This document shows positions 26,325 to 27,246 of a DNA stretch of 44,829 nt, piece after piece (position 1 is the first letter of the stretch; each line of letters opens with the position of its first letter). A model generated the notes under the pieces. It had not been told where the DNA came from. It did no database searches and saw nothing but the letters and a program-made list of their open reading frames with translations. The translations under genes and the position numbers were made by a program. The stretch lies in sequence record NC_042084.1. One strand, 5' to 3'. This DNA is from Escherichia phage VB_EcoS-Golestan.

Positions 26325-27246
26325 TTACCGCCCCCATGAATGCCTTTATAAATTCAGCAGCTACTTGCGGGACGATGGCATTGCCGTAACCGCGCAATCG
26401 TCCCACTCTGGCGGGTATCCCATCAGCCAGCGGGAATGTGCCGGGTTCAACTGGCCTGAATTTTCCATCCCGGCATCCGAGCCAGTCTGCCTCTGACCAG
26501 AAGCCGTGATGCGGATTGGTCGCGATATTTTCAGTCCCTGCTCCGTTGAGTAGTCCAGCCTGTCGAAAGTCCGGTCCTTTCCGTCCTTGCGAATCACTGT
26601 CTCTCCGCTCCCTCTGTAATCGTTCGCGGTCGGCGTCGCCCATGCCGTCATCGCGGCGGCCCACCCCAGTTTGTTCGGTTTCGTCCTGCCGTCTGTGCTG
26701 CGCATGTTCACGTCGTTTGTTATCAGTGATACTGCTGGCGTGGGCCAATCTATGCGCGCCGAAGAAAAGTCGGTCGCGTTTGTGCGGTGCGCCGACGCTA
26801 CAAGCTGGGAGTACGGCAAACCCGACGGCGTAGTTTTCTCCTTCCAGGTGAGTTTGTAAATCGCACATCCACGATTTTGCAATTGCTGGCGCAACCTGCT
26901 CCCCAAAGAGGACTGGAGGGCGGCACTCGCTGATGAGGTCGAGGAACACAGGTGCGAGGTGTCTCGGGTCGAACTGTCCGAGTTGCTTTCCCGCTGCGCT
27001 AAACGGTTGGCAAGGCGGGCTTCCCGTCCAGAGAGGCGCATCTTCCGGAACTCCCGCAAGTCTGAGCGCGAGAGGCCAGCCGCCGATACCAGCGAAAAAA
27101 TGACACTGGGTGAATCCGTCGAGGTCTTCTGGCTTAACTTCAGTAATGCTTCTTTCATCTACAACTCCAAAAGGTATGTGACCCTGTTTTATTAATTCAC
27201 GCAGCCACGCGGCTGCGCCTTTATCCCATTCGTTGTAATAGTTCAT
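26317..27246 (-). CDS. DNA (cytosine-5) methyltransferase
   Basis: Motif I FFAGIGGW, motif IV PPCQPFSAAGK, motif VI FGEQV, motif VIII APHKRDRLFF and motif X GYGNAIVPQVA. Residues about 165-245 are R/D/E/Q/G-rich low complexity. Confidence 0.85.
   Translation of the reverse strand: MNYYNEWDKGAAAWLRELIKQGHIPFGVVDERSITEVKPEDLDGFTQCHFFAGIGGWPLALRLAGVPEDAPLWTGSPPCQPFSAAGKQLGQFDPRHLAPVFLDLISECRPPVLFGEQVAPAIAKSWMCDLQTHLEGENYAVGFAVLPACSVGAPHKRDRLFFGAHRLAHASSITDNKRREHAQHRRQDETEQTGVGRRDDGMGDADRERLQRERRDSDSQGRKGPDFRQAGLLNGAGTENIATNPHHGFWSEADWLGCRDGKFRPVEPGTFPLADGIPARVGRLRGYGNAIVPQVAAEFIKAFMGAVNE
26361..27158 (-). CDS. alternative-frame ORF nested in the methyltransferase gene (WPTP-repeat region); coding status unresolved
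   Basis: 265 codons in the +1 frame on the same strand. GGAG lies 6 nt before the ATG. The C-terminal 170 aa carry [26 protein letters not shown] and [17 protein letters not shown]. Confidence 0.35.
   Translation of the reverse strand: [265 protein letters not shown]

Follow-up and report, generated by a model that had tools for sequence, protein, structure and literature searches.

An open reading frame nested within a phage DNA cytosine methyltransferase gene is under selection and probably encodes the second chain of a two-chain enzyme

The genome of Escherichia phage VB_EcoS-Golestan, an Escherichia coli siphophage belonging to Kagunavirus (Guernseyvirinae), raises the question of whether one piece of DNA can encode two proteins and, if so, what the second protein does. 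In this window (NC_042084.1, the whole stretch of 44,829 nucleotides (nt) analysed here), an open reading frame (ORF) of 265 codons, termed frame B, lies wholly within the gene for a C5-cytosine methyltransferase chain of 309 amino acids (aa), termed frame A; both are on the same strand and overlap by 798 nt. B is in the +1 frame relative to A, because the distance between the two start positions (27246-27158 = 88) equals 3x29+1. A preliminary description, made from the sequence alone, had offered three explanations: a true overprinted gene, isoforms made by frameshifting, or the remnant of an ancestral frame. Upon re-check against the sequence, its coordinates, frames, overlap and quoted amino-acid strings were exact, as were its positions for a GGAG, for a TTG at 26894 with GGGGAG and for a CTTTTC. 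We found that both ORFs are under selection and, with high confidence, that both are functional genes. Together they probably form a two-chain DNA methyltransferase resembling M.EcoHK31I, an enzyme of two polypeptides encoded by nested genes.

To examine conservation of the two frames, 65 related viral loci were collected, and the analysis was made on the 58 IMG/VR loci that matched A nearly completely. Frames 0 and +1 were both open across the gene in 55 of the 58, with frame-A identity ranging from 98% down to 43%, and B was conserved in relatives in which identity at its C-terminus had fallen to ~30%. A was open in every one of the 58 loci, though 5-18 stops were expected, and the third frame was broken into pieces of no more than 94 codons, with 8-30 stops in the 54 distinct loci (14 in this phage). 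Double openness was also seen in Salmonella phage epsilon15, Klebsiella phage Seifer and Klebsiella phage VLCpiM12a. When the synonymous codons of A were shuffled in the sequence of this phage, B remained open in none of 500 shuffles (4.0 stops expected), and shuffling the synonymous codons of B left A open in none of 500 (7.0 stops expected). Across the 54 distinct loci, the median P was 0.002 for an open B under the A shuffle and 0.000 for an open A under the B shuffle. For the upstream 80-105 codons of B alone, P was ~0.05 per locus, yet this part was stop-free in 54 of 54 distinct loci. Double openness by chance is therefore excluded.

The three loci in which both frames are not open look recent or artefactual. 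In two of these, L020 and L033 (metagenome 3300045988), the T6 run at 27095-27100 (CATTTTTTC, in motif I of A) is longer by one T, which moves A from motif I onward into the frame of the B start codon and cuts off the first 50 A residues. This extra T is probably a homopolymer assembly error, a slippage-prone site also being possible. In the third, L047 (601-1743 of a 105-kb viral contig), there is one in-frame stop in the module region of B (…KLPGMA*LTTWP…); A is intact, and the conserved B motifs downstream of the stop can still be read.

Nucleotide diversity at the codon positions of 21 Kagunavirus-like sequences showed that selection changes along the gene. Diversity at the wobble position of A was ~0.40 in A codons 1-105, indicating constraint on A alone, and 0.13-0.22 in codons 106-165, indicating constraint on both frames. 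In codons 241-285, the wobble diversity of A was 0.21-0.29 versus 0.25-0.32 for B, the B wobble varying as much or more, and after the stop of B the A wobble diversity was back to 0.37-0.41, A alone again being constrained. Pairwise frame-separating estimates in the style of OLGenie, made in two clades (Table 1), showed that the distance at sites synonymous in A and nonsynonymous in B falls 2- to 4-fold in the helix-hairpin and C-terminal overlaps, and the last ~45 shared codons showed constraint in both frames.

Table 1. Ratios of nonsynonymous to synonymous change (dN/dS) in each frame, and distance at sites synonymous in A and nonsynonymous in B (A-syn/B-nonsyn); values are Kagunavirus / environmental clade, the control being Kagunavirus only
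Region	A dN/dS	B dN/dS	A-syn/B-nonsyn
Control before B	0.13	1.05	1.5
B first ~75 codons	0.13 / 0.075	0.9 / 0.73	0.96 / 0.90
Helix-hairpin region	0.48 / 0.17	0.72 / 0.44	0.42 / 0.57
C-terminal overlap	0.42 / 0.34	0.62 / 0.35	0.41 / 0.21

The variable middle of the gene is globally unalignable because its modules are non-homologous, and local protein-guided blocks were used instead. Within these local homologous blocks, dN/dS was 0.10-0.21 for B versus 0.41-0.61 for A, and in the band of 85-99.5% nucleotide identity, where the alignment is unambiguous, it was 0.10 versus 0.41. B is thus the main selected frame in the variable middle. The preliminary description had noted that where one frame looks genuine the other resembles junk, that two stretches look real in both, and that A residues ~165-245 read as if constrained by the other frame. 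The dN/dS values and wobble diversities agree with the first two observations, the two stretches corresponding to the helix-hairpin region and the C-terminal overlap. Its first explanation, a true overprinted gene, is upheld as well: both frames are open in nearly all loci, A-synonymous variation is suppressed where B is conserved, and B has thousands of homologues. Each of the findings that it had named as jointly telling against such a gene turned out the other way, since homologues exist, B stays open in relatives and synonymous rates in A are depressed.

B matched phrog_1008 with an E value of 1.8e-59, whereas searches of B against Pfam and NCBIfam gave no match; PHROGs labels both phrog_1008 and phrog_363, the family matched by A over its full length, 'DNA methyltransferase'. 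Homologues of B numbered 6084 in one search and, for the C-terminal 170 residues, 8660 in another (E<=1e-3, among 1.84 billion cluster representatives). The matched proteins have 200-460 aa, the match typically starting ~90-100 residues from the N-terminus, as in the nested layout here, and PF00145 was absent in frame with B in the ten longest B matches. The B-type proteins found were all nested in this type of methyltransferase gene, and they make up a large, modular family. Its consensus reads SSxSAxLQxxLxSRLxxxLxxxGSxxYxLTWKxxxTPxGRxxxxLxASxxRTS, followed by (W-P-T-P-x-x-x-D module)n and a conserved tail, in which a motif-IX-like element, nearly invariant in the family, resembles M.HhaI LHPRECARVMGYP by eye. 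Residues 1-73 look disordered, with a predicted local distance difference test (pLDDT) score of 30-40 in the AlphaFold2 (AF2) model. Among 382 distinct B proteins, the number of modules per protein was 0-10, most often 2, and the modules fell into 227 clusters and 295 architectures. The modules of this phage, M0 and M1, recur elsewhere, both alone and in other combinations, and the B modules recombine combinatorially.

Several relatives depart from this layout. In L025, L027 and L069 (668-2026), and in proteins P0149, P0316, P0331 and P0147, frame B runs beyond A into further domains; the extension domains seen in some relatives are an HNH-like domain (Klebsiella KpV2811-type phages), a Dam N6-adenine methyltransferase (PF05869) and DUF2800/PD-(D/E)XK. 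In L029 and L030 it is frame A, not B, that extends, to 481 codons. In addition, one B-family protein, P0172, has the first ~19 residues of A (MTAYYNEIDPFAAQWLRNL) joined in frame to B, representing either a frame-joining variant or an error.

Frame A carries motifs I (FAGIGGW), IV (PPCQPFS), VI (GEQV), VIII (HKRDRLFF) and X (GNAIVP). PF00145 matched residues 68-186 only (62.6 bits versus a cut-off of 22; E 5.6e-17), a stretch that includes the catalytic motifs IV (PCQ), VI (ENV-like) and VIII (QxRxR-like), and the A profile matched M.HhaI residues 72-174, containing motifs IV-VIII, with an E value of 1e-19, the match to motif I being weak. In the AF2 model, the top fold matches of the N-terminal domain were M.HhaI, M.HaeIII and DNMT1. 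The N-terminal ~165 residues of A form the catalytic domain of a C5-methyltransferase; past motif VIII, A gave no model or profile match, and A does not present the complete canonical set of motifs I-X, in order, in one chain. Motif I is followed by IV without II-III in between, and these two appear instead to lie N-terminal of motif I. Specifically, BLASTP of A against M.HhaI left a 35-residue gap between I and IV, where M.HhaI carries II-III. The N-terminus of A (YYNEWDKGAAAWL...GVVDERSITEV; residues 3-37, 27136-27240) was seen to align to M.HhaI YSNEWDKYAQEVY...EGDITQV with a pairwise E value of 9e-4, the M.HhaI sequence used being only partly confirmed by the profile match. Judged from these alignments, the motif order of A seems to be permuted to II-III-I-IV, with motif I at 27076-27096.

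Downstream of the catalytic domain, in the place expected for a recognition domain, A has a low-complexity linker with a pLDDT of 27-40 in the AF2 model; members of the family differ in its length, which ranges between ~30 and ~300 residues. A recurring linker motif, (V/L)(A/G)(D/N)(S/T)..R, is W-P-T-P-x-x-x-D read one base earlier, and the linker is largely a frame shadow of the B modules. The C-terminal ~60 residues of A (FWS..CRDGKxRP..FPLAxGIPxRVGxLRGxGNAIVPQxAAEFIKAFM) are kept in relatives down to 43% identity, and the terminal helix, residues 290-308, which carries GNAIVP, was modelled with a pLDDT of 75-86.

These features can be combined into a two-chain enzyme. We propose two separately translated, assembling chains because the division of motifs matches the M.EcoHK31I precedent: two fully overlapping genes on one mRNA would give the two chains of a DNA cytosine-5 methyltransferase. 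Catalysis would fall to A, with an S-adenosylmethionine-binding and catalytic N-terminal domain (motifs I and IV-VIII), a disordered linker and, at the C-terminus, a segment that closes with the motif X helix. B would be initiated separately at its own ATG at 27158, 88 nt inside A, and would begin with an unconstrained, probably disordered leader of ~75 residues. Its conserved helix-hairpin may dock onto A, its one or more shufflable 'W-x-T-P' modules may recognise the DNA target, and its C-terminus may contribute the motif-IX-like element, such that the two chains together would reconstitute the large and small domains of an ordinary single-chain enzyme, as experiments showed for M.EcoHK31I. 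Such an enzyme could methylate the phage DNA and so protect it from restriction by the host. The B modules are strongly selected whereas the A linker is near-neutral, a difference suggesting B as the site of target recognition. We put forward only tentatively, and with less than even confidence, the stronger view that the +1 frame holds the entire target-recognition apparatus (1-10 shuffled 'W-x-T-P' modules plus motif IX), the variable region of A being a mere frame shadow.

The start region of B is consistent with separate initiation. A B-frame ATG was present 61-106 nt after the A start in 57 of the 58 loci, formed in 48 from a GAT codon for Asp in A and in none from GAC; TAT was used in 6 and AAT in 2. 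It is preceded by GGAG in the Kagunaviruses and, at a distance of 7 nt, by AGGAG in one environmental clade, where the Arg AGG and Ser AGC codons of A provide this sequence. Because the upstream codons of B are stop-free though neutral in amino acids, translation from an upstream start is proposed. Conservation of the internal TTG at 26894 cannot by itself show that this codon is used, because its bases are also constrained by motif VI of A and by 'LGSRL' of B.

A number of observations weigh against the two-chain enzyme or against parts of it. The first ~75 residues of B evolve almost neutrally, and an internal B start, such as the TTG at 26894, may be used. Translation of B from 27158 and binding of B to A are deduced from evolutionary evidence, namely purifying selection in both frames, and should accordingly be read as predictions, as should the roles of the B modules in setting specificity and of the enzyme in protecting phage DNA. 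In the variable blocks, the B-guided alignment favours B somewhat. AF2 was confident for B residues 76-125 only (pLDDT 75-89) and modelled the conserved A segment 250-289 poorly, so that in A just the catalytic domain at the N-terminus and the final helix were confirmed. The B profile had no match among solved structures at E<=10, its C-terminal 53 residues gave a chance match only, and no significant sequence or fold similarity linked B to the small domain of any C5-methyltransferase of solved structure; the search by fold told little, because most of the AF2 model of B has low confidence. Motif IX is thus a putative assignment made by eye, with no significant hidden Markov model (HMM), PDB or fold match. 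Furthermore, the predicted recognition domain of M.EcoHK31I was published as part of alpha, whereas the selected recognition-like modules found here are in B and the variable region of A is near-neutral.

B might instead be a real protein that has nothing to do with methylation, perhaps acting as a regulator or as some other anti-defence factor. Such a function would fit the lack of a Pfam, NCBIfam or solved-structure match, the low confidence with which most of B was modelled, and the continuation of B into other domains in some genomes (PF05869, HNH-like, DUF2800/PD-(D/E)XK). We consider it unlikely, however, since no B-type protein was found outside a methyltransferase gene of this type, the C-terminus of B resembles motif IX, and the conserved parts of B occupy the positions taken by the recognition domain and motif IX in a single-chain enzyme. 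Moreover, M.EcoHK31I, the one studied enzyme with this layout, requires both chains.

The second explanation in the preliminary description, a frameshift isoform, would have ribosomes shift +1 near CTTTTC, at 26764-26769, from A after motif VIII into B, giving a single chain with motifs I-VIII, the modules and IX, possibly with a shift back for X. The motif order of such a fusion would be canonical, and CUU-U, a known type of +1 slip site (as in prfB), fits the model. A fusion of this kind is found in contig L073 (1501-2385 of a 3.6-kb contig, Logan SRR26534461), where a 1-nt deletion ~10 nt downstream of CTTTTC, at ~26756 (the T of CAT after FFGA), joins A residues 1-164 to the W-P-T-P part of B (QDWPTP...), resulting in the 294-aa protein P0121. 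This fusion is taken as a recent mutation or assembly error, because the region encoding the C-terminus of A is still intact downstream in another frame. A similar A-B fusion, after motif IV, is present in P0131. A search for single-frame relatives with the catalytic domain of A and the modules of B, covering 505 proteins, yielded only these two 1-nt-indel fusions, which may be assembly errors, and the fused product would have no motif X. A frameshift would require neither the open upstream 80-105 codons of B nor the open middle of A, but both are conserved against expectation, and B possesses an ATG of its own, which in two clades follows a Shine-Dalgarno-like sequence. The candidate site has no adjacent zero-frame stop or rare codon and no visible upstream stimulator; A continues for 145 codons after it, B is open for ~130 codons before it, and its T-rich run is dictated by 'RLFF' in motif VIII of A. 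Hence, the zero frame does not end soon after the site and B does not open only from there on, and frameshifting appears quite improbable.

Finally, the proposal that B is not a gene, being a by-product of composition and codon usage or, as also suggested in the preliminary description, a decaying ancestral remnant, could draw on the nearly neutral first ~75 codons of B and on the stop inside B in L047, where A is intact, but is rejected as highly improbable by the synonymous-codon shuffle tests, the purifying selection on B, the retention of B at frame-A identity down to 43% (its C-terminus down to ~30%) and a family of 8660 cluster representatives.

The features of the preferred two-chain reading are placed on the genome in Table 2. 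Genes are tightly packed around A: its ATG overlaps the stop of an upstream 63-aa ORF (ATGA; 27243-27246), and its last codons overlap the start of a downstream SNF2-type helicase gene by 8 nt (26317-26324), suggesting translational coupling along an operon that also includes B. The methyltransferase region is 100% identical in phages BEU33, BEU35 and vB_Eco_K-02. Positions 24600-29000 of the window differ from the same coordinates of ON001686.1 (vB_EcoS_SCS44) by 52 substitutions and 0 indels over 4.4 kb.

Table 2. Coordinates of the two frames, their segments and candidate start signals in NC_042084.1
Feature	Position	Strand	Description
Frame A	26317..27246	minus	C5-cytosine methyltransferase chain of 309 aa, 'alpha-like'; from the ORF list
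Frame B	26361..27158	minus	Nested ORF of 265 aa, +1 frame, 'beta-like'; phrog_1008, without Pfam family
GGAG, Shine-Dalgarno-like	27165..27168	minus	6 nt 5' of the B ATG (27156-27158); made by Gly-Val codons of A
Internal in-frame TTG, B codon 89	26892..26894	minus	GGGGAG (26899-26904) upstream with a 4-nt spacer; possible alternative start, 177-codon product
B residues 1-75	26934..27158	minus	Open N-terminal extension over A motifs I-V; no amino-acid constraint
B residues 76-125	26784..26933	minus	Conserved helix and beta-hairpin over A motifs VI-VIII; doubly constrained; proposed dock onto A
B residues 126-212	26523..26783	minus	Variable region with two 'W-x-T-P' modules; proposed target-recognition modules
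B residues 213-265	26364..26522	minus	Conserved C-terminus with motif-IX-like element; nearly invariant columns
A residues 166-248	26503..26751	minus	Low-complexity R/D/E/Q/G-rich linker; kept open, weakly constrained
A residues 249-309	26320..26502	minus	Conserved C-terminus FWSEADWLGCRDGKFRPVEPGTFPLADGIPARVGRLRGYGNAIVPQVAAEFIKAFM; motif X helix; runs past the B stop

Current annotations treat the pair in different ways. In phage K1ind3 (GU196281), the nested ORF is annotated as ORF29, 'putative Mte8-like protein', inside ORF30, 'putative C-specific methylase'; the nested ORF has been present in GenBank records of K1 phages from the K1-phage study of 2010 onward, 'Mte8' being an annotation label only. 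RefSeq names both frames 'DNA methyltransferase', and in VLCpiM12a frame B was chosen and A left unannotated. A blastn search found a homologue in 66 of 5426 complete E. coli genomes. For the prophage of E. coli Ec1117 (L072, 2378-3547; NZ_CP126602), the Prokaryotic Genome Annotation Pipeline (PGAP) gives two partial 'DNA cytosine methyltransferase' pseudogenes, one without the C-terminus and one without the N-terminus, both in frame A, the low-complexity middle being skipped; an MT-A70 methyltransferase, marked as frameshifted, is immediately upstream. The nested ORF in K1-phage records and the nested-gene architecture characterised in M.EcoHK31I are thus already known. Our literature search found no paper on the phage-wide family as overlapping or dual-coded methyltransferase, and its breadth (thousands of clusters), the mosaic of selection in two frames and the assignment of the variable module part to the nested frame appear to be undescribed.

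The overlap, which is 265 codons here and 220-420 across the family, is among the longest same-strand overlaps in phages, and selection measurable in both frames makes it a clean natural case of two proteins sharing one sequence. B is usually unannotated, called 'hypothetical' or picked instead of A, and recognising the pair would correct thousands of records. If the B modules set the target, phages could alter or widen their protection from restriction by cassette swaps that leave the catalytic chain untouched, and module content might predict which restriction systems are evaded by a therapeutic phage, such as the K1 coliphages. If recognition resides entirely in B, thousands of the genes labelled 'DNA cytosine methyltransferase' in phages and prophages would encode two-chain, possibly multi-target, enzymes, their specificity subunit being overprinted on the catalytic gene and mostly unannotated, and the published domain assignment of M.EcoHK31I would need revision.

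M.EcoHK31I, from E. coli HK31 (Lee, Kam & Shaw 1995), is described as a two-polypeptide C5-methyltransferase with beta encoded inside alpha in another frame; alpha carries motifs I-VIII and X, beta carries motif IX, both chains are required, and deletion of the beta N-terminus abolishes association with alpha (PMC2836561, PMC3404938). Compared with that published description, the phage locus has the same architecture, the small-chain ORF lying entirely within the large-chain ORF on the same strand, a layout conserved in 55 of the 58 loci. Like alpha, A has motifs IV-VIII (by HMM), I (by a weak HMM match and pattern) and X (by pattern, on a modelled terminal helix), and the alpha-binding N-terminal part of beta parallels the conserved helix-hairpin of B. 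The sizes are reportedly similar too, alpha being said to have 309 aa and beta 176 aa, against 309 aa for A and 177 codons for B from the TTG. Unlike M.EcoHK31I, the phage enzyme is an orphan without a restriction partner, and the ORF of B begins much further upstream, with an unconstrained leader of ~75 residues.

Three other systems share single aspects of this arrangement. M.AquI (Karreman & de Waard 1990) is likewise a natural two-subunit C5-methyltransferase, with alpha and beta split within the variable region (PMC3404938). The M.AquI ORFs are consecutive, whereas those of the phage are nested, and its beta subunit has motifs IX and X, whereas motif X is on the large chain here. The Rz/Rz1 spanin genes of phage lambda resemble A and B in that one gene is embedded in the other in the +1 frame and the products act as one complex (PMC9409062). 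Their function, lysis, is unrelated, and the Rz1-type embedded gene is much shorter. The multispecific C5-methyltransferases of Bacillus phages (M.SPRI, M.Phi3TI and M.Rho11sI; Trautner laboratory) are orphan enzymes with tandem, swappable recognition modules. Unlike A and B, each is a single chain encoded in one frame; like them, B has 1-10 shuffled modules, each of which may, by analogy, recognise one target.

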